Positions 49,302 through 62,644 of a stretch of 64,000 nt of DNA are shown here, piece after piece; within the stretch, counting starts at the first letter, position 1, and the number at the start of each line of letters is the position of its first letter. Where the stretch lies: contig NW_026865718.1 of the NCBI RefSeq assembly GCF_026571515.1, positions 124,001 through 188,000 of the forward strand, written 5' to 3'. This DNA is from Ruditapes philippinarum. Taxonomy: Eukaryota. A model generated the notes under the pieces. It was not told the DNA's origin. It was given only the letters and a program-made list of their open reading frames with translations, and made no database searches. Both the position numbers and the translations under genes were made by a program.

Positions 49302-51989
49302 ATGCACAGAAGCCAAACAATACAAATGTACCGCGTAAGGGGTTCGAACTTGCCATGTTTAAGCTATAAAAACAGCCACGGTCGTCCCTTGAAAAAAAGA
49401 ATGATTATTATCAAGAAACTTTACCAGTAAGTTGTCCGTATTAAAGTATGTACTGGTCGTCGCTATAACACGGCGAAATGAGGACCATATTTATCAAAAC
49501 ACTTTCCCTACTAAAGCAACGCCATTAAGGATTTTAACTCTTTTTTTTCATCAACCAGAGTGCATACATCTCAAATATCACCAGGAAACGTAAAATAGAG
49601 CGAAAAAGAAAAAAAACTAAAAAAATGTCAAGAAATCTCTCTGCAAGTTTCTTTGATTAAATGACCCTGTTGTTTTTTTCTGGCAGTTTGCCGCCAATGT
49701 CTATCACAATATAAAGTGGTGCACGAAATGTTATTGTCCGGTTCTTGAGATTCGTAGCTTATCATTTTTTCCTCGTACGGTACAGATAAAAAAAAAGTCG
49801 GACGTATCATTACATTAGATAATTTATCATTTTTCCATAAATATCATTTAACAATTTTGTGAAGTTGGCGGCCTAGCGACGTGAAGTTGGCGGCCTTAGC
49901 GGCGTGTAGTTTGCGGCATAGCGGTGTGATTTTGGCTTACGTTTTTAACACTAACAGATACCGGAAGGTATGGCAAATCTTTACACTAACCAAAACGTTG
50001 CTTTCATTTTGGGATCATTTTACAGCCGTTTTTTTTTAATCAGTTTTCGATTCATTGCATGACATTTTTATGCAGCTAAGTTATTATTTTTGACAAAACC
50101 CTTAATAAAATTAAGTCGAATTTGAAGACATCTTTCAATCTGGTTTAGTACAGAAATATCAATGCTAGTAAAAAGGTAATATTCCGCTACATTTCCCATC
50201 AAACAAGTTTAAATTATCAAGTAAATTATAGTTATATTATAGACCCCAAACTCATCATAACATTCTCTATCTAAATTACGTGTCTAAACAATGGAATTAG
50301 TGAAGTAGGAGGAGAAAAAACAATGTTACGTAATATATTTTCTCGACAATACTGATCTTCTGTTTACGATGAGAGAGGCTTTTTTTCTTGTATAAAACTA
50401 ATGAAAAAACAGAGAGGCGATTGATTGATTGATGTATATCTTCACATGGGAAGGAAGTATATTTTGATATTTCATTATTTTCTACAGAGATTTACGACGT
50501 ATATTTACACCAGTAAGGTTAGTTTGTTCTATAGTAATCAGTAATCGGTAATAAAACGAAATAACCGAATAAAGCAAAATTAGTTCTATGATTGATGAAT
50601 TATATGTAATAGTTGGGGGAATACATATTCAAAAGGACAACCTTTCTGTCGGCGAAACTCTGATATATGCAGAATGAAAGTGGATAGTGGTCCCCTTGGA
50701 TGTTTCAAAGATTTTCACATCATTTTAGTCGAAATGAGTCAGAAAGTTTTAGAACAAAACATTTGCAAGATTGATTTCCAAATTTACTTACATTGAATAT
50801 TCATGAAATAAAAACATTGTCCGTCAAGCGATAATTTTTTTTTTTACCAAATCAATCAATGATTTTATTTTCAAAGACGATCAATATAAAATGTATCATG
50901 TTTTTCTTTAAACAAGCTGCGTTGTGCTTTTGAAAAAAGTCATGACCCTTTTTCACAGTTAATTGCATTAAAACTTTTATTGACATACTATTAATTGTCG
51001 TATATAATCAGTATTATCATGCCATTTGACACCATAATTTGGTATAGACATGTAAAAACTAGAAAATATCATTATGTACTAACAGCAAGTCTGAATTTAT
51101 GTTAATTTGTAAAATGTACATTGTATTATTCAAAAGATAAGAGTGTAACAATTAAGTGAAAATACTTATGTTGTAGCTAAAACTTTAGGTTAAACATAGA
51201 CTTTTCAAGTACATGTATTAAATTATTAATTTGCATGTCTGACTAATTTTCAAAATGTCTTCATTTCATCCTTTGTAAGTCACGTATGTTTATAGCATTT
51301 ATTGTAAAGTCCTCATATTTGCATGCTAACATGTATTGAGAGAAGTAAAGATTATCATGATATGTTGAACAAGACCTATATGCATTGACCAACCTATTTC
51401 CTCACCCCCATCCCCCACCGTCAACGAAGAATACAGGTTGACAAGTTTAGTACTTTTTAATATACTTTTCCCTTTACATGACACTTTAACAATCTTCTTT
51501 CACTACGTTGTCATTAAATTTAATAGTTTATTATAATAGATACCCGGAGCGTTTTTTTAAACCATGATACGTTACAAACGCCACGCTGAATTTAACACAT
51601 GGAATGCAACCTTAAGGGGGTATACGAGGATAAAAACATACTTTTGATAAACACACATTTATCTTTTTGCGGCTTTTTTATTTGAAGGAAATAAAAAAAA
51701 GAAAACATTAATGACCTATATATAAACTATGATCTTGTTACTTTACAATACTAAAGAGAGTGAATCATCCAAACTTCTGCAGGGTGACCTTGAACCTTTA
51801 AACATTGTGTAGAGTAGTGGCCCAGAAGTAGAACACGCACATTGGGTTTGAGAGGTCTCCGGTGCGAGTCGCATCAGGGATACTGCAAATTCCCCGAGCA
51901 TGAAAATTAACTCTACAGTGCTACACTTTACTAAAAAAGTTTACTTAAGGTGATTATTGGTACATGAAAGGGCAGGATAATTCCGTGGA

Positions 51990-52570
51990 TGGCTATAATA
52001 AGGGCTGCCTTGTGAACTAATATTAAATGGGCTGCCATGGCGTGGGTGGTCCTAATATGAGCTGCCATACTGTGGGCTGACATAACGTGGGCTACCCAAA
52101 TTAGGACGGCCATAGTGTGTGCTAATATTATATGGGTTGCCATAACGTAGGTTGCCATAAGGGCTGCCATACTGTGGACTGCCATAAGGTTCGGTTCCAT
52201 AAGGTAGGCTGCCAAAATAAGGGTGGCAATAATGCGGGCTTATATTAGATGGGCTGCCCTGACGTGGGTTGCCATATGGGCTGCCATAATGTGGGCTTCC
52301 ATGACGTGGGTGCCGTACTGTGGGCTGCCATGACGTGGATGCCATTATGTGGGCTGCCATGACGTGGGTGCCGTACTGTGGGCTGCCATGACGTGGATGC
52401 CATTATGTGGGCTGCCATGACGTGTGTGCCGTACTGTGGGCTTCCATACTGTGGGATGCCATGATATGGGCTTGCCATGATGTAGGCTGCCATTAAATGT
52501 GCTGCCATAAAATGGACTGCCATAATGTGGGCCGCCATAAAGTTGACTGTCATAAAATTGTCAGCCATTT
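51990..52570. repeat. GC-rich minisatellite, 14-17-bp units (tgtgggctgccatgacg)
   Basis: Tandem units of variable length. Confidence 0.85.
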
Positions 52571-53259
52571 TATGGAAAGAAAGGTGGATTCAAGTGCCTT
52601 AATGGCCAGGGATAAATGTAGTAAAGTCGGTAAAGTTTTTCATGCGCATTAAACTAAAATTTATAAATTGCAATTTGACAGAGTGTATGTGATATGGCTA
52701 GAAAAATATGATGCTTCTGATGCGATCAAAAAGATGTACTACATGCATATCCAATAAACGTATAGAATAACACACACAGTTCACTAGAACGAACGTGAAC
52801 AGACTAGGTCAATTGTAAAATATTCAAATAACAATCGATCTAATAAATAACTCTCTCGCGATTATTTTTCTCTATCAAAAGCCTGCTAACGTTCACTGAG
52901 CATAACAGTATTTCAGTAGATGTCTATTTTTTTGTCTAAATAGCGCTTACAAGTGTTAAATTTCGGAACAGTTTAAGAAACCAATGCATCGTTACTATAT
53001 AATTATAATATAATTGTTTAACAATTTATTTATTGACTACCTCAGTGAAATTCAGTAAATGTAGACATTGCAAGAGTTTTATATTTCAAAAATGTGAAAA
53101 AAAGTTTTGAGCCAGCGTGATTCTCATTTAGTTTCTTGTTGTTGTTGTTGTTATTATTTATATGTTTAGCAAACGCGTTATGAAATATCATAACTTTTGT
53201 TCATTAATCCGCAATTATGAGAAAGAACAAACGCACGAACTCGCTTACATTAATTTATT

Positions 53260-53535: not shown

Positions 53536-54820
53536 GTTAGTTCTTTGAAGAAACCTTTAAGAAGAACTGTCAAAGCATTTAATTCATAAAATTTCGAGTG
53601 AGTTTTCTCTAAATCCAGATTAGATAATCTTTCTATGAATCAAGCAGTAATTACAGAAAATTATCATGAAACAAGTGTCAAAAATACAAAAGGATTAAAA
53701 GACGATAAAGCTATTATCCTTAAAGATTAAGTTAATACTTAATACTAAAAGACGAAAGAAGCAGTGACGCATTTAGTACCTGAAAATGGCTCTATCTGTA
53801 ATTCCGGGTCACCTAGGAAACGGTTTCATATTTTCATCAAACCTGCAAATAGAACAAAATCAATTTTAAAACCTGCATGTGCAGTTTGAACCACTGGAAA
53901 ATTGTATGAATATATATGATTAGATGAATATAGCAAGATCTGTTCCAAAATGTGAAAAGGTGCCACCTTTTATTGACGTCTGATGTTACAAAAGTGCGAA
54001 AAGTGTCATCATTTACACTCTTTGATGCTACAAAATTTAGATGCTTTTGCTTACGTCACTGAAAATTTGTTTACTTCGATTCAATCAAAACATCCATGTA
54101 AGTACATGTACATGTACATGTATATATCAAAATGCGTAGTATAAAAAACATGAAATATAAAACCGAAAAGATGTTATGTTATGTAAAGGATAAAACAGGC
54201 ATTAAATAGTTTACATAATAAAAGTCAAATTTAGCATGTATCAAATTGCCATGGAAAATATTACGATGCATAAATATAAAAATTGAGACAAACAATCAGG
54301 AAATAAACCTCATCTCACGTGCATCTCACGTGTTTCTCACGTGCTTCTCGCGTGCATAAAAAGGGCTTATTATAAGTCCATCTTCACAAAAAATATCATT
54401 ATTAAAGAGATATTTGAAGTAAAAACAAAGGACCTGATAGATCATTTAGATATCGCCAGTCGCAAATATCCAGTTAAAATGTCCTCTTTTTTTAGTTGTA
54501 GAGTTTTTACATATACTCCATCTTTAGTAACAACTTCGCCTTTGGAGGAGAGTTTTCAACACACCAAAGAAATTGATAAAATAAAAGAAATATTTTTGTG
54601 AGGTCTTCTGGGGTGTTTTTAATTCATACCTTTTAGTTGTTTTTGTTTTTTCTTTTTTCTTCAGTGGTATGCTCATAGCAAAGTGCGAAGAGCAAGCACC
54701 CTGCTTTTACGAATGAAGGTAGATATAATTTATTTACGGGTGCATTTTCCTTTTAATATAATATTAAAATAAATTGAAAAATAGAATCGTCCATGACCTT
54801 CTCAAAAGCTTCCAGTTAAT

Positions 54821-55031
54821 TATAAATATAATATAATATCAAGTCTCGTCTTAGATATATTTTTATCTGGGAGGGGAAGTAACTCCTTTACCTTTAAAGG
54901 GTAAAAATTTGATATTCATTAACCGGTTTTAATAATATGACGGTTCGATAAGTTTATGTGTCACTCACGACTAGACATTTCTGGAAACTCAGGGGGAAGG
55001 TCAAAAATTTTTTTCCCTCAGTTTTTAAATT
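54821..55031 (+). repeat. Split direct repeat A1 of Ngaro element
   Basis: Matches 60918-61119 (atatcaagtctcgtc...ctgggaggggaagtaactcc...ctagacatttctggaaactcaggg...cctcagtttttaaatt) with small indels. Confidence 0.9.
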
Positions 55032-55619
55032 TCTTTAAAGTTAATTACACGTTTCTTTTATTGTCTTATTCGGGTATTAATTACTTTAGAATATCTTGAA
55101 CGTTACGTTGCCCGAATTATTTCCAGTAATTTTTCTTCTTTTATCGCTAAATTGCTATTTATTCTCATTTTCCCGTCGAAGCACGTGGGGTAGAACTAGA
55201 AGTGGCAATGCCATGGCGTGGCGGCCATATTTCACTGTTTAAGTGCACCGTATTATAATAACATATATTTTATAAATCTTATCAACAAATTTATTCGAAT
55301 GAAAGTAAATGCTAGTAACTAAAGGAATTTTTATAGAATTCATTAAAATCCACAGACCACGTGGTGTCTTAGCAGTGCAAGCCACATAATACACATTTTT
55401 ATAATATTCATAGATTTAGTTCAAAACCGTTCTTAAAATTTCAACATTAATTATTGATAAAAGAATTGATAAAATAATTTACTTATAAATGAATGAATTT
55501 GAATAATATGAATGAAATTAAGAATTATTGCAATAAATAAGATGTTGCTACATTTATTAAATTTGCTGAACATTCCACTTTTAATTTCTGTTTTAATTTA
55601 TTTTACATATACGGCCGAT

Positions 55620-56864
55620 ATGCCTCGTCCGAAAAGGAAACTTCCACTTGCTGGACAAGTTGATCAACGTCGTCAAAGGAGGAGGGCAGCTGCAGCTTCC
55701 CCCCCTTTTTCTGGGCCTAATGTTCCTGCTCCACTTACTAATTATACACCTCATCCGCTGGCAAGTAGTGTACCTGCTCCATTATACTCTAGTGGGAATC
55801 AACATTTTCAGTGTGCGGTACCTCCTCCACCAGTTCATGGCTCTGTTGCATCATATGCAACTGCAAGTAGAAACCAAGACTTTCAGTTTCCTCCACCTGG
55901 CTTTCCTGCTCCACAAATTAATTATACATCTGGTCCGCTGGCAAGTAGTGTACCTGCTCCATTATACTCTAATGGGAATCAGCAATTTCAGTGTGCGGTA
56001 CCTCCTCCCACAGCTCATGGCTCTGTTGTTTCATATGCAACAGCAAGTAGAAACCAAGACTTCCAGTTTCCTCCACCTGGTCCTAGTGTTCTTCAACCAC
56101 ACCCTGATGTTTTGGATCAGCCTCCAGTTATGGCAACACCTGCTGATCATAGTTTAGGTAACCTTTTTCCTTTACATTCTGTTTGTACCAATATGTGTAT
56201 GCATATTTCACAAAAAATTAAAGAGCAAGTCTGGTCAGGTGAATATATTGATTTAGGATTACTGTTACAAAAAGAACCATTACCAGAGGCTCAGTCTATT
56301 AAAGTTTTAAATGGCAATATTGTATTAGACAGTAGTCCAAAAATACATGAAATGAAGAACATAAGTTCATGGACTGACGCATTTTTAATATATATTCAAA
56401 TAGTTATTATGAAAAGTCCCTCTCTTGCCTCGGAGTTAATACAGTACATGCACATGGTCCGCCTAGCTGCAAAACGTAATTCATTTGGCTGGCTGTATTA
56501 TGATAAAGCTTTTCGACAGAAAAAATCTATGCATGCCGATATGAAATGGTCCTCTATTGATGGCGAACTTTGGTTGCTTACAATGACTGGTACTTCACAT
56601 GTTAGACAGCCTCAAAACCAGTTATATAAATATAACTTATGTTTATTCTTTAATAATAAAGGCTTTTGTACAAAGTCTGGATGCCCTTATCAGCATCTCT
56701 GCAAAAATTGCAGAGGTCCCCATTCAGCTATTTCATGTGGGATTCGAACCTCAACTTCTATGCAAAATCCGTTAAATAATTTCAGGCCTAGAGTCGTTAA
56801 ACCACAAGGCCCAAGATTTAGTGCTCCTCGAGCGTTTGTTGGAGTTAGGTACATCACCAATTGA
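55620..56864 (+). CDS. Gag-like ORF1 of Ngaro element (Pro-rich N-terminus, C-terminal CCCH/CCHC zinc fingers)
   Basis: Likely start MPRPKRK at 55620. WTDAFLIY, GWLYYDKAFRQK and CLFFNNKGFC..CPYQHLCKNCRGPH..C are typical of YR-retroelement ORF1. Confidence 0.85.
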   Translation: MPRPKRKLPLAGQVDQRRQRRRAAAASPPFSGPNVPAPLTNYTPHPLASSVPAPLYSSGNQHFQCAVPPPPVHGSVASYATASRNQDFQFPPPGFPAPQINYTSGPLASSVPAPLYSNGNQQFQCAVPPPTAHGSVVSYATASRNQDFQFPPPGPSVLQPHPDVLDQPPVMATPADHSLGNLFPLHSVCTNMCMHISQKIKEQVWSGEYIDLGLLLQKEPLPEAQSIKVLNGNIVLDSSPKIHEMKNISSWTDAFLIYIQIVIMKSPSLASELIQYMHMVRLAAKRNSFGWLYYDKAFRQKKSMHADMKWSSIDGELWLLTMTGTSHVRQPQNQLYKYNLCLFFNNKGFCTKSGCPYQHLCKNCRGPHSAISCGIRTSTSMQNPLNNFRPRVVKPQGPRFSAPRAFVGVRYITN

Positions 56865-58456
56865 CATAAAACGTTTAAAGATATGGTTAAAGGGTTATGA
56901 GGTTGCTGAACAAAATTATCTTTTGAATGGTTTTAGAAAAGGATTTGGACTCCAGTACTCTAGCCAACAGATTAGTTATGAATCAAAAAACTTAAAATCT
57001 GCCATTTTAAATCCAAAGGTATTAGAGGTAAAATTAATTAAAGAAGTTGAACTGGGTCGGATTTTAGGCCCATTTAATGAAAAACCATTTTCTAATTTAA
57101 GAGTCAATCCTCTGGGATTAGTCCCCAAAAAATCAGGGGGTTGGAGATTGATTACTAACCTGTCTCATCCTATAGGAAATGGAGTTAATGATTTTATTGA
57201 TTCAAAGTATTGTTCAGTTCATTACTCCAAGTTTGACAATGTTATTGAAAAAATTCAAATATTGGGTAAAGGGACTGAACTTGGTAAACAAGATATTTCT
57301 TCTGCCTTTAACCTGTGTCCAATTAGGCCAGAAGATTTCCCACTGTTGGGGATCAAATATAAAAACAGATACTGGATACAAAAAATGCTGCCTCAAGGTG
57401 CATCAATAAGTTGTGCAATATTTGAACGTTTTTCTTCCTTTATCCAGTGGGCAGTTTCAAATTATACAAAATCTTCTAACATTGATCATTATCTAGATGA
57501 TTTTATTTTTTTGGGTAAATCTGGAACTAAAGATTGTTCTAAGTTGATGTCGGATTTTAAACATATCTGTGATGACATGAACATTCCACTAAATCCGGAT
57601 AAGTCTGAGGGTCCAGTTTACTGTCCTTACCTATTTAGGTTTTGTACTTGATACAGACAAATTGGAAGTCCGTATTCCATCGGAAAAAATAGAGAAGGCT
57701 AAAGATTGTATTAATGAAATTATTCATAAGAAAAAGGTCAGGCTAAACAAATTCCAGTCTGTTGTTGGTCTTTTAAATTTCTTTACAAGAGTGATTCCTT
57801 CAGGGCGAACATTTAATTGTGGTTTATACAGAGCAATGTCTCGGGCTAAACGCCCAAATCATTTCATTCGAATTTCTTCCTCAAACAAAGAGGATTTAAT
57901 GATGTGGCTTCATTTTTTAGAGCATTATAATGGTATATCTGTTTTCAGCAACCTTGATTGGGTGTCAGATAATAAGCTCCATTTATATACTGACTCTGCT
58001 GGAAATAGAAATTTGGCCTGTGGAGCATATTTAGATGGAGAATGGTCAGTTTTTAAATCGCCAGAGTGCTGGGGTGATGAAATTTTCAAAGACATAACCT
58101 TTTTAGAATTAATCCCAATTGTTTTGTCATTTTATTTGTGGGATTCCAAATTAAAAGGGAAAAAAATCATTATTCATACAGACAATCAAAGTCTTGTCCA
58201 AATTATTAACAATAAATCTTCACGCAACAATCGTGTAATGATATTAATGAGACAGTTGGTTCTTAAATTGTTGCTGCAAAACATTCAGATTAAAGCAGTT
58301 CATATCGAGTCAAAAGAAAATGGTATTTGTGATGCCATCAGTCGTCTGCAATATTCACGATTACTATCTTTATTGCCACATAATGCATGTAAAGTTCCAC
58401 TTTCAATTCCACAGGACTTCCAGCATTTTTGTGCAGCGAAATTGACCATCTTGTAG
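56821..58456 (+). CDS. Reverse transcriptase-RNase H of Ngaro element, split by a +1 frameshift at about 57617-57619
   Basis: PLGLVPKK..WRLITNLSHP, KQDISSAF, LPQG, HYLDDF; RNase H LYTDSA, ITFLELIPI, HTDNQS, NGICDAISR. Removing one T from gtttac restores EGPVTVLTYLGFVLDT. Confidence 0.92.
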
Positions 58457-59292
58457 ATCAGTCTTTGTCTGCCAATACGCATAGAACTTACTGTTCTGCA
58501 CTTCAAACCTTTGACAAATTCAGATGTTCACAGTTTAATAATAAAAGTTGGCCCCCGCCATTATTTCATATTACTCATTATATAGCTTATATGTCATTAA
58601 GCGGTTATGCATACAAAACTGTTAATTGTCATATATCTGCAATCAGTTTCATAAACAAATTGTATAATTTGACAGATAACACTCAATGTTTTTTAGTCCG
58701 CAAACTTCTTGATGGTATGAATAGGTCTCAAAGGCGTAGGGACACTAGACAGCCAGTTACCATTAATTTGCTACATCTTCTGGTTCACAACCTCAAATTT
58801 GTCTGCTTGTCCCATTATGAATCCATTTTATTTACAGCGGCATTTATGGTTGCATTTTATGCTCTCTTGAGAGTGAGTGAAATTAACATTATTAGTAAAG
58901 AAGATGTATATTTATCTGATTCACACTTGTGTCTTAATATCAGACATTCAAAGACTGATCAATTACATAGAGGTTCCATAGTGAAAATTCCTTTAGATAG
59001 AAATTTGTCCGGCCATCTCAAGGAAGTAATCCTTCATTATATGGCAGTGCGTCCCACCTCTGGCTACCAATTCCTCTCCCATTTAGATGGTTCACCACTT
59101 ATGCCTTACCAATTTAGGTCTGTTTTAGCAAAAACCTTAAAATATTCAGGTATAGACTGTTCTAGACTCAAAAGTCATTCCTTTCGAATTGGTGGTGCTA
59201 CTTACTGGATTATGCAAGGCTTTTCAGAAGATGAAGTAAAAAAAATGGGCAGATGGAGCTCAAACTCGTATAAGCTCTATGTGAGGCCATAG
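58429..59292 (+). CDS. Tyrosine recombinase of Ngaro element
   Basis: Catalytic set: LLRVSE (R), HSKTDQ (K), HSFRIGGAT (HxxR), MGRW, YKLYVR (Y). Confidence 0.95.
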   Translation: MCSEIDHLVDQSLSANTHRTYCSALQTFDKFRCSQFNNKSWPPPLFHITHYIAYMSLSGYAYKTVNCHISAISFINKLYNLTDNTQCFLVRKLLDGMNRSQRRRDTRQPVTINLLHLLVHNLKFVCLSHYESILFTAAFMVAFYALLRVSEINIISKEDVYLSDSHLCLNIRHSKTDQLHRGSIVKIPLDRNLSGHLKEVILHYMAVRPTSGYQFLSHLDGSPLMPYQFRSVLAKTLKYSGIDCSRLKSHSFRIGGATYWIMQGFSEDEVKKMGRWSSNSYKLYVRP

Positions 59293-59337
59293 TATAGTTA
59301 GTCCATGTTATCATTCTTTTGCATTTTTCCATATTAG

Positions 59338-59939
59338 GTGAACAGTCCAGCCATTCAGTTTGGTTGGTTGGCTCCTCAATTTTAAGAGATGCTCATCAGT
59401 ATGCAAAGTGTAACAGTACATTTGGTGAACATTTACAATTTAATACAATTGGTGTAAACGTTGTTTGGCGCTATAGACCAGGCTTAAAAATTCAGCACCT
59501 TTATAATGATATTCAGTTATTAGCCACTGAGCATAATTCTGTGCCAGATATTTTGTTTATTCATTGTGGAGGAAATGATTTGGGTCAAACCAGTCTTTCC
59601 TACATTAATTATTCTTTAAAGGCGTGTCTTGCAGATTTATTACATTTATTACCAGGTACGAGAATCATTTGGTCTGCTATTCTTCCTAGGCTCCATTATC
59701 GAAATGAAGAAAATCATTTCAAGTTAAATAAAGGAAGAAAACGTATCAATAGCACCATGGCAAAATTTTGCATATCAAATGGTGGTGGCTACATACATTA
59801 CCCAAGAATTGTTGAAAATCAACTATTTTTCAGAGATTTAGTACATTTATCTTCCTTTGGTAACTCCATATTTGTGGACAGTATAATGAATGGACTGTGG
59901 TCAATTCTAAATTGTGAACTAGTATCGTATCCATGTTAG
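59338..59939 (+). CDS. SGNH/GDSL-type hydrolase of Ngaro element (no own start ATG; begins at a splice acceptor)
   Basis: Block I VWLVGSS, block III HCGGNDL, block V DLVHL. Preceded by a polypyrimidine tract and TAG ending at 59337. Confidence 0.85.
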
Positions 59940-60088
59940 CATGAGCATATTTCTAATTATGAGTTGGTAGTTATTAAAGGGGCCATGTCTGCCACTTTCT
60001 GCGCAGTTTTTCTCCATCCAATTTGGGGGTATTGTATGGCAGAGGCTTGCATGCAAATCACCAGGCTGATGTGGATCCAAGCCTTTTG

Positions 60089-60921
60089 GCAGGCACTTGC
60101 GCAGATTTTTAATGCATTTGCAATGTACAAGGGTGTTTAGCAAACAAAATTGTTTTTATAATTTTAAACATGATTGGATGTAGCTGTTTCAACAAGATAT
60201 ATTTTCCAAATGTCCGAAGTGAAATATAAATTTCCGATTGTCCGGAATGATACATAAATTTCCGATTGTCCGGAATGATACATAAATTTCCGATTATCCG
60301 GAATATGAACAAATTTCCGATTATCCGGAATATGAAAATAAATTTCCGATTATCCGGAATATGAAAATAAATTTCCGATTATCCGGAATATGAAAATAAA
60401 TTTCCGATTATCCGGAATATGAAAATAAATTTCCGATTATCCGGAATATAAAATATAAATTTCCGATTGTCCGGAATACTTTATTACTATGTAACGCTCT
60501 CCAGTCTGAACAAAATAACTTCTGATTTTCCAGAGTTTGTACATTCAATCATGTATATATATATTCTTTATATGTAAATTTCCGAACATCCGGAATTATG
60601 GTGGTCTGCCATATTGCCCCTTGGGATCAGCGCAGCACCAAAAAATTCTCTTGTGCATTGCAAATGTATTTTACAGCCATGGCCAAAAACTGCCAAACTT
60701 ATTTTATATGCGTTGATTGACATTCTTAAGAATATAATATTGTTAAATTGTTTTTGTATTAATGTTATAATCCTACAGAGATTATTGTAAGACATTGATA
60801 TTTACAATTACATGTATTATTATTTTATAAAGAAAATAATAATTCAAATAGATTATAAAACAGTTAGCTTTACTCTGTTTTTATTATATTGTATATTTAA
60901 TTGAAACCTTTCCCTGATAAT
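60089..60921 (+). repeat. Split direct repeat B1 of Ngaro element
   Basis: Nearly identical to 61808-62644 (gcaggcacttgcgcag...ccctgataat). Confidence 0.95.
60228..60477. repeat. Minisatellite of about 28-29 bp (aaatttccgattatccggaatatgaaaat), about 9 copies, inside B1; repeated at 61947-62197 in B2
   Basis: Tandem units directly visible. Confidence 0.95.
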
Positions 60922-61119
60922 ATAATATATATCAAGTCTCGTCTTTAGATATATTTGTTATCTGGGAGGGGAAGTAACTCCTCTAACCTTAAAGGTAAAA
61001 TTTGATATTCATTACCGGTCTTTATAATATGACGTCATAAGTTTATGTGTACTCACGACTAGACATTTCTGGAAACTCAGGGAGGAAGGTCAGAAATTTT
61101 TTTCCTCAGTTTTTAAATT
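60918..61119 (+). repeat. Split direct repeat A2, abutting B1
   Basis: Copy of A1 fused directly to the end of B1 through a shared TAAT. Confidence 0.9.
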
Positions 61120-61807
61120 CCCTCCACACCCCCACCCTTTCTATGGTCTTTTGCTGCTTTCTTTTATTGTCTATTTTCAGATTTGTCCACAATTTAGGGT
61201 TCGTCATGGCTGTCGTAACCATTTCCAAAGTGGCTGCTCATTATGCGGGAACATGGATGCCTCGTATAATAAAGTGTTTCACAATGGGCTTAGAATCGAT
61301 GGAATGGATAAAATAGTAGTTCACAACATGAAAGTGTTCAAACTTGTGTAATGAAACATTATTATGTCTTTCAAAGGATTCAGTTTTCCTTTACATACGT
61401 ACATTTTATTTAGATACCATTAATTGAAAATTATGGCATGGAACATTACTTCTTGTGTACTGTGAACATTATTTATGTCATTGATTCATTGGAAATTAAA
61501 CCCTTGCATTTAATTTTATGCATATTTAAAATTATTTAAACTTTTTAATGCCTTACATGTACAGTAGACATACTATATTGTTAAAGATTAATGTATAATC
61601 AATTCTTTAATTATAATTGTAACTTAATACAGTAAGCAAGTCTATCCATTTGTAAATATGTAAAACTTAAGTGTAGAGATTATTAATTTGACAAATGTTT
61701 GTGATAAGCAAAGCTAGTGTTGTCAGTTGTAATTGTATTAATCAGTTTGTTTCTTAATACTGTTTCTAATTCTATATGCAGTAAGCCCATTACTTTCAAT
61801 TTCTTGA

Positions 61808-62644
61808 GCAGGCACTTGCGCAGATTTTTAATGCATTTGCAATGTACAAGGGTGTTTAGCAAACAAAATTGTTTTTATAATTTTAAACATGATTGGATGT
61901 AGCTGTTTCAACAAGATATATTTTCCAAATGTCCGAAGTGAAATATAAATTTCCGATTGTCCGGAATGATACATAAATTTCCGATTGTCCGGAATGATAC
62001 ATAAATTTCCGATTATCCGGAATATGAACAAATTTCCGATTATCCGGAATATGAAAATAAATTTCCGATTATCCGGAATATGAAAATAAATTTCCGATTA
62101 TCCGGAATATGAAAATAAATTTCCGATTATCCGGAATATGAAAATAAATTTCCGATTATCCGGAATATAAAATATAAATTTCCGATTGTCCGGAATACTT
62201 TATTACTATGTAACGCTCTCCAGTCTGAACAAAATAACTTCTGATTTTCCAGAGTTTGTACATTCAATCATGTATATATATATTCTTTATATGTAAATTT
62301 CCGAACATCCGGAATTATGGTGGTCTGCCATATTGCCCCTTGGGATCAGCGCAGCACAAAAAAATTCTCTTGTGCATTTGCAAATGTATTTTACAGCGCA
62401 TGGCCAAAAACTGCCAAAACTTATTTTATATGCGTTGATTGACATTCTTAAGAATATAATATTTTTAAATTGTTTTGTATTAATGTTATAATGCCTACAG
62501 AGATTATTGTAAGACATTGATATTTACAATTACATGTATTATTATTTTATAAAGAAAATAATAATTCAAATAGATTATAAAACAGTTAGCTTTACTCTGT
62601 TTTTATTATATTGTATATTTAATTGAAACCCTTTCCCTGATAAT
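61808..62644 (+). repeat. Split direct repeat B2 (right terminus of element)
   Basis: Copy of B1; it explains the duplicated ORF-track peptides 60109-60312 and 61828-62031. Confidence 0.95.

Follow-up and report, generated by a model that had tools for sequence, protein, structure and literature searches.

Hydrolase genes have been noted before in Ngaro retrotransposons. In the Xenopus elements DIRS-53_XT and DIRS-54_XT, an SGNH hydrolase is listed as a fourth open reading frame (ORF) 'with no proven function'; the available text of that report never uses the term intron (10.1101/2021.08.05.455354). The accessible parts of the literature as a whole treat the Ngaro hydrolase as being of unproven function and without a splice (10.1101/2021.08.05.455354, PMC7192593, PMC5408684, PMC3905857, PMC8547959, PMC9341512, PMC6681497); none is described in the full texts searched, as far as these are available, and early primary Ngaro papers or Repbase entries may mention splicing. 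Similar enzymes are carried by other retroelements: the ORF1p of the zebrafish long interspersed nuclear element (LINE) ZfL2-1 consists of an Arg-rich motif, a linker and an active esterase that binds negatively charged liposomes (PMC3905857, available text), and the rotifer Vesta elements encode a GDSL esterase as ORF3 (PMC5408684, available text). Here, we analyse a Ngaro-type element from the bivalve Ruditapes philippinarum, located in a 64,000-nt stretch of contig NW_026865718.1 (positions 124,001 to 188,000; hereafter, the window). A preliminary description of the window had mentioned both the Ngaro hydrolases of unproven function and the esterases of LINE ORF1p (found in the CR1, L2 and RTEX groups), and the cited sources, so far as accessible, agree with it on both counts.

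Going by the accessible text of these sources, the clam element differs from each of its closest known counterparts in how the hydrolase is attached. It shares with DIRS-53_XT and DIRS-54_XT the repeat order A1-ORFs-B1-A2-B2, the succession of gag, reverse transcriptase/RNase H (RT/RH), tyrosine recombinase and SGNH, and the lack of a methyltransferase match; it differs in its bivalve host, and in that its SGNH domain is a predicted second exon, fused to the N-terminal part of Gag (Gag-N) (10.1101/2021.08.05.455354). With the esterase ORF1p of CR1/L2/RTEX LINEs it shares an Arg-rich motif, a poorly conserved linker, a C-terminal SGNH esterase and no folded RNA-binding domain; ZfL2-1, by contrast, is a non-LTR (long terminal repeat) element with one contiguous ORF that includes a coiled coil (PMC3905857); the clam fusion would be assembled from two spliced exons and would coexist with a full-length Gag of its own. 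The env or ORF3 messages of retroviruses and LTR retrotransposons, including Vesta, are similar in that subgenomic splicing past pol gives access to an extra 3' ORF, and GDSL/SGNH cargo occurs among them; these are integrase-type elements for which no Gag fusion is described (PMC5408684). In the clam Ngaro, unlike LTR elements, a large coding Gag exon would supply the start, and integration would be by tyrosine recombinase.

We propose that the window element probably makes its esterase from a spliced subgenomic RNA, in which gag codons 1-179 (ending at donor 56157) are joined in frame to an exon that lacks a start of its own (acceptor 59338). The subgenomic Gag-N/SGNH splice is real and conserved in Ngaro elements, as demonstrated in sister families, and the join would explain how a start-less esterase is expressed. 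The Ngaro SGNH ORF was already known; the splice defines the actual protein, such that its activity, localisation and necessity for retrotransposition become testable. The features concerned are as follows (a slash marks the cut):

54825-62644, + strand: Ngaro-type element; split direct repeats enclosing gag, RT/RNase H, tyrosine recombinase and SGNH
55620..56864, + strand: gag-like ORF1, 414 aa, with a basic start, Pro-rich duplication, conserved core and Cys/His-rich end
55620..56157, + strand: predicted exon 1, coding portion (179 aa of Gag-N), ATG at 55620
55723-55900 and 55903-56080, + strand: duplicated Pro-rich linker, two 178-nt copies of 91% identity
56155..56163, + strand: phase-1 splice donor TAG/GTAACC (cut 56157/56158)
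56236..56244, + strand: rival phase-1 donor CAG/GTGAAT within the Gag core (cut 56238/56239), the best matrix score in the window gag
56158..59337, + strand: predicted GT..AG intron of 3,180 nt (Gag core, RT/RNase H, recombinase), with homologous introns of 3.1-3.2 kb in sister family L040
59312..59337, + strand: pyrimidine tract and AG, the phase-1 acceptor of the SGNH exon (cut 59337/59338)
59338..59939, + strand: SGNH hydrolase exon (PF13472, E 1e-7), its frame open over 59298-59939

Direct reading of the sequence upheld the structural claims of the preliminary description. The SGNH ORF indeed has no ATG before its catalytic motifs: of its 200 residues, only 141 and 184 are Met, both past the Ser, Gly and Asn blocks. 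Its acceptor lies behind a polypyrimidine tract (...ttttccatattag/GT, ending in ccatattag/GT) and is in phase 1 of the SGNH frame; the donor, TTAG/GTAACC, lies 538 nt into gag, also in phase 1 and 77 nt past the end of the 178-nt duplication. Joining the two across the GT-AG intron gives a protein of 379 aa with no internal stop. Among 11 other copies of the family examined, the donor is kept in all six that hold the region and the acceptor AG in 9 of 10; most of these copies are young, so that retention within the family says little alone. The alternative of a 5' leader exon spliced to an acceptor ahead of the gag ATG was ruled out for the window family, there being no AG in that place in the window or in seven other copies.

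A homologous Gag-N/SGNH join exists in five sister families of the same genome. Firstly, three genomic copies of family L088 (on contigs C3663, C11682 and C4991), with differing 5' flanks, are missing exactly the segment GCCG/GTAGGT...TTTAG/ATG; they retain the terminal repeat, and four unspliced copies stand alongside. Exact loss of a GT-AG segment is the trace left by reverse transcription of a spliced RNA; spliced RNAs of Ngaro elements can thus return to the genome as copies. The three may descend from one event. Secondly, proteins P0003 and P0018 (L045/L072) are continuous Gag-N plus SGNH ORFs of 384 and 387 aa, encoded on Logan contigs of 1,517 and 1,582 nt, which are too short to contain the intron. 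Their join agrees with CAG/GTAATA in L072 and attatag/GT in L045, and no fused DNA copy of L045/L072 was found in 53 matches (107 of 379 candidates scored); the type of sequencing run behind the contigs is not stated in the record. Thirdly, five NCBI proteins map to five loci of L040 as two exons with zero mismatch (TCAG/GTAATG to ttag/GT, introns 3.1-3.2 kb), these being predicted gene models whose RNA support is not visible. Finally, P0052 maps at 100% as two exons on L075 (CAAG/GTGAGT), and P0053 approximately so on L076/L077.

In a wider search with the SGNH exon, 33 of 150 representatives have at least 45 residues ahead of the motif, and 12 of those 33 show a basic start and low-complexity linker (by thresholds chosen after looking). 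Some are named from Mercenaria, Saccostrea and Crassostrea; all 12 were read as protein only. Many 'uncharacterized' bivalve proteins at NCBI are likely to be spliced transposon products. Related SGNH domains with long low-complexity N-termini are also listed outside molluscs (P0129, named from the fish Astyanax; likewise P0115). Separately, L092, L093 and L094 (C11682, C4991 and C3663) are short, non-autonomous Ngaro copies consisting of terminal repeats, a Gag-N exon and an SGNH exon; in the L089/L094 copy, the fusion frame is still open (237 aa).

The phase of the splice sites was compared across divergent families, using one representative per family from the same genome (SGNH identity 24-63%, median 33%). 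For acceptors, the top-scoring AG in the 54 nt that precede the SGNH motif was taken (4 of 22 representatives were dropped because the motif was not found); for donors, the best-scoring site between the gag start and the conserved core, with codon shuffling as the null. Both scores are rough, their frequencies not having been trained on this genome. Of 18 families, 16 have their best acceptor in phase 1 (binomial P 1.7e-6, assuming independent families), and 13 of 14 have their best donor in that phase (codon-shuffle expectation 0.60 per family, P 0.005), compared with 6 of 14 in a control stretch in the Gag core; shared ancestry of the families makes these P values overstate independence, a first point to be set against our proposal, and they serve as guides only. 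In the clade nearest to the window, the donor lies 21-29 codons before the core Trp and is encoded as a G-N, G-E or G-D dipeptide. The used donors of L040 and L072 lie at -25 and -24 codons, and window donor 56157 at the matching position; the exceptions are L038 and L065, where the top donor is far upstream, and L091, where it is in phase 2. Conservation of phase, which the preliminary description had named as a check on its proposal, therefore holds across families as well as among the family copies. A single GT/AG pair is within chance, while by sequence comparison the phase match across divergent families is beyond it.

The same comparison bears on whether the splice-like sites are incidental, with the esterase being translated from unspliced RNA or from a transcript of an internal promoter (through initiation at a non-AUG codon, reinitiation past the recombinase stop, or readthrough). 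The SGNH frame is open for 13 codons upstream of the acceptor, where gene call P0027 begins. An in-frame Met lies ahead of the catalytic Ser in six of 18 families; in the other 12 the open frame contains none there. This explanation leaves unaccounted for the 16 phase-1 acceptors in 18 families, the GT-AG-deleted copies and the fusion ORFs on short contigs, and we consider it very unlikely. Catalytic residues are retained alongside phase: Ser, Asn, Asp and His in 18 of 18 families (the search motif itself required the Ser), and, judged by alignment column, the Gly of block II in 17.

RNA from the window family itself was sought in assembled contigs from four runs of four studies (X14, X8, X3 and X9), which are RNA by guess; assembled contigs drop rare forms. 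Branches with roughly one-tenth of the main depth survive in the X14 contigs, which do branch exactly at 56158, at the donor. Past the donor, one contig continues for at least 255 letters into a unique locus (G000:C11126:132447-132476(-), L051), right behind a T-rich tract and ...catttcag/G; its depth, estimated from the depth table, is 3-4 versus 68. Donor 56157 is thus functional, in this case feeding a cryptic acceptor outside the element. Upstream of that acceptor, neither 30 kb of C11126 nor the genome search yielded a copy of the family; a family insertion near it may be polymorphic or unassembled.

It could be argued from this contig that the joins are cryptic splicing or annotation artefacts without a role for the element, given that the donor splices into unrelated flanking DNA too and that the upstream partner of the SGNH exon varies between gene models. 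However, proteins about 33% identical still share the splice phase and the catalytic residues, and spliced copies have been reinserted with terminal repeats; we regard this as the least credible of the alternatives, and extremely improbable.

Several further observations weigh against the proposed splice in the window family: (i) contigs cover the element unspliced, running through the donor in three runs and through the acceptor in all four, and neither a 56157^59338 joint nor a branch at 59338 is among the contig pieces listed for them; (ii) in its sole observed use, donor 56157 is spliced to an acceptor beyond the element, and the contig carrying that acceptor yielded no copy of the family; (iii) among the collected proteins, the window-family SGNH occurs only unspliced (P0027, 29 contigs), with no fusion protein of this family among those of 351-2000 aa and no match to Gag-N among longer ones; (iv) no spliced copy of the family was found among 13 SGNH-side genomic matches, all of which keep the intron side, or among 14 Gag-N-side matches; (v) donor 56157 scores low (1.8), and a better-scoring donor lies at 56238; and (vi) several gene models, which are not RNA, attach the SGNH exon to parts of the recombinase or to a different donor (P0004, P0010, P0014, P0016), P0004 coming from a locus copy without the normal donor, where the model uses a later gag donor. 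The donor at 56238/56239 (TCAG/GTGAAT) had been overlooked in the preliminary description; no sign of its use was seen in the assembled contigs of the examined runs.

Additional runs gave no information on splicing. In X21 and X22, labelled RNA-Seq, 55-57% of the reads placed on window positions 54700-60150 run on into unlike sequence, and the 12 loose ends shown are all at GATC; these runs behave like a proximity-ligation (Hi-C type) DNA library. The raw-read runs X23 and X24 gave zero and nine reads at the element.

Points (i) and (iii) to (v) would fit a splice that is ancestral for the group, and that the window family now uses rarely, no longer, or via the stronger phase-1 donor at 56238, leaving the esterase hardly expressed. 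Against this stand the observed use of donor 56157 with none at 56238, its position matching that of the donors used in L040 and L072, and the intact SGNH frame in five young copies; we think such reduced use unlikely. Our preferred reading, in which 56157 is joined to 59338, is that most window-family RNA would stay unspliced, as genome and Gag/Pol template, while a minor share would be spliced. If made in the window family, the splice is minor or tissue-bound in these samples. The subgenomic Gag-N/SGNH mRNA of the preliminary description is therefore backed by joined forms in sister families and by use of the donor in X14, while the 56157^59338 junction itself was not seen in the contigs of the four runs.

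The SGNH exon encodes what is modelled as an intact alpha/beta fold of this type with the catalytic residues kept. All four blocks are found (G-S-S at 59370-59378, the Gly block at 59478, GGND at 59568 and D-x-x-H at 59835-59846), and the structure model has a predicted local distance difference test score of 96.5. In a fold search, natural SGNH/GDSL enzymes appear from rank 5 on (TM-score 0.6-0.7), with designed scaffolds at ranks 1-4 and 6; the best, weak, sequence match in the PDB is the esterase of the ZfL2-1 LINE (4c1b, E 0.031). The predicted fusion consists of an Arg-rich peptide linked to the esterase by a Pro-rich tether, with the Gag core dropped; Gag-N is 20% Pro, and has nine Arg/Lys among its first 32 aa.

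A retroviral env protein has its own start and a membrane anchor. Neither of these, nor a signal peptide, was found for the clam esterase: no Met precedes the catalytic blocks, and the exon folds as one soluble domain (no dedicated transmembrane predictor was run). The analogy with env drawn in the preliminary description hence extends to RNA processing only, the clam product being a soluble esterase fused in frame to Gag-N, from which the Gag core is missing. Judging by analogy, the product may instead resemble the ORF1p of esterase LINEs, a suggestion about which we remain somewhat doubtful: the basic peptide would keep hold of the RNA or particle of the element, and membrane lipids would be bound or cleaved by the esterase in particle assembly or transport. 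The likeness suggests that two unrelated retroelement classes have reached the same basic-peptide-plus-esterase design.

The same gag donor may also supply a start to the recombinase, whose ORF has no Met before its core in the window. Two candidate acceptors, overlooked in the preliminary description, precede that core:

58397..58457, + strand: pair of candidate phase-1 acceptors ahead of the recombinase core (cuts 58414/58415 and 58456/58457)

Joining the donor to one or the other gives open frames of 471 and 457 aa, and among the other copies holding the region the first is retained in 10 of 10 and the second in 9 of 10. Across families, with 3 of 19 loci lacking an anchor motif, the top pre-recombinase AG is in phase 1 in the window, L040, L045, L050, L065, L077, L084, L085 and L091 (anchor uncertain), and is not in L068, L069, L078, L082 and L088; no joined Gag-N/recombinase form was seen, and no spliced copies of this kind are among the exon-1 matches of L088. 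A second phase-1 acceptor giving a Gag-N/recombinase fusion may thus exist, as a prediction from sequence. A broader scheme can be put forward only tentatively: a retrovirus-like splicing programme in which one Gag donor serves two acceptors, placing an Arg-rich front on both recombinase and esterase, with the esterase fusion a convergent copy of LINE ORF1p that takes the particle to or across membranes.

The remaining features of the element are:

54825..55031, + strand: split direct repeat A1 at the element's 5' end, 91% to A2
56776..58456, + strand: RT/RNase H (Pfam PF00078, PF17917)
58393..59292, + strand: tyrosine recombinase ORF (PF00589, E 5e-13), first Met only at residue 67
60089..60921, + strand: split direct repeat B1, 99% to B2
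60919..61119, + strand: split direct repeat A2, 91% to A1
61808..62644, + strand: split direct repeat B2 at the element's 3' end, 99% to B1

By repeat layout, ORF set and Pfam matches, the element is classed as a Ngaro-like tyrosine recombinase retrotransposon: the A1-ORFs-B1-A2-B2 order is present; the gag, RT/RNase H and recombinase ORFs are all present and overlap; and the five ORFs have no Pfam match at E 0.1 to a methyltransferase domain, which separates Ngaro-like from DIRS-like and PAT-like elements. Gag-like ORF1 gave no match in a Pfam search, and its core is alignable with 13 other families. About a dozen copies of the window family, and at least 150 SGNH matches from related families, are present in the genome (G000). 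RT/RNase H is broken into two frames near 57600-57650 in the window copy and is a single frame in L034; in L078 (2530-5259), gag and RT/RH form one open frame of 910 codons. A1 and A2 of the window copy differ by many small indels, and A1 of sister copies is 98-99% like the window A2; errors of assembly, and not decay, may account for the A1 indels and for the frameshifts that many copies show. Both B repeats contain a 29-nt tandem repeat of about nine units (60220-60480 and 61941-62199), and a degenerate 15/29-nt repeat array lies upstream of the element, at 51900-52600.

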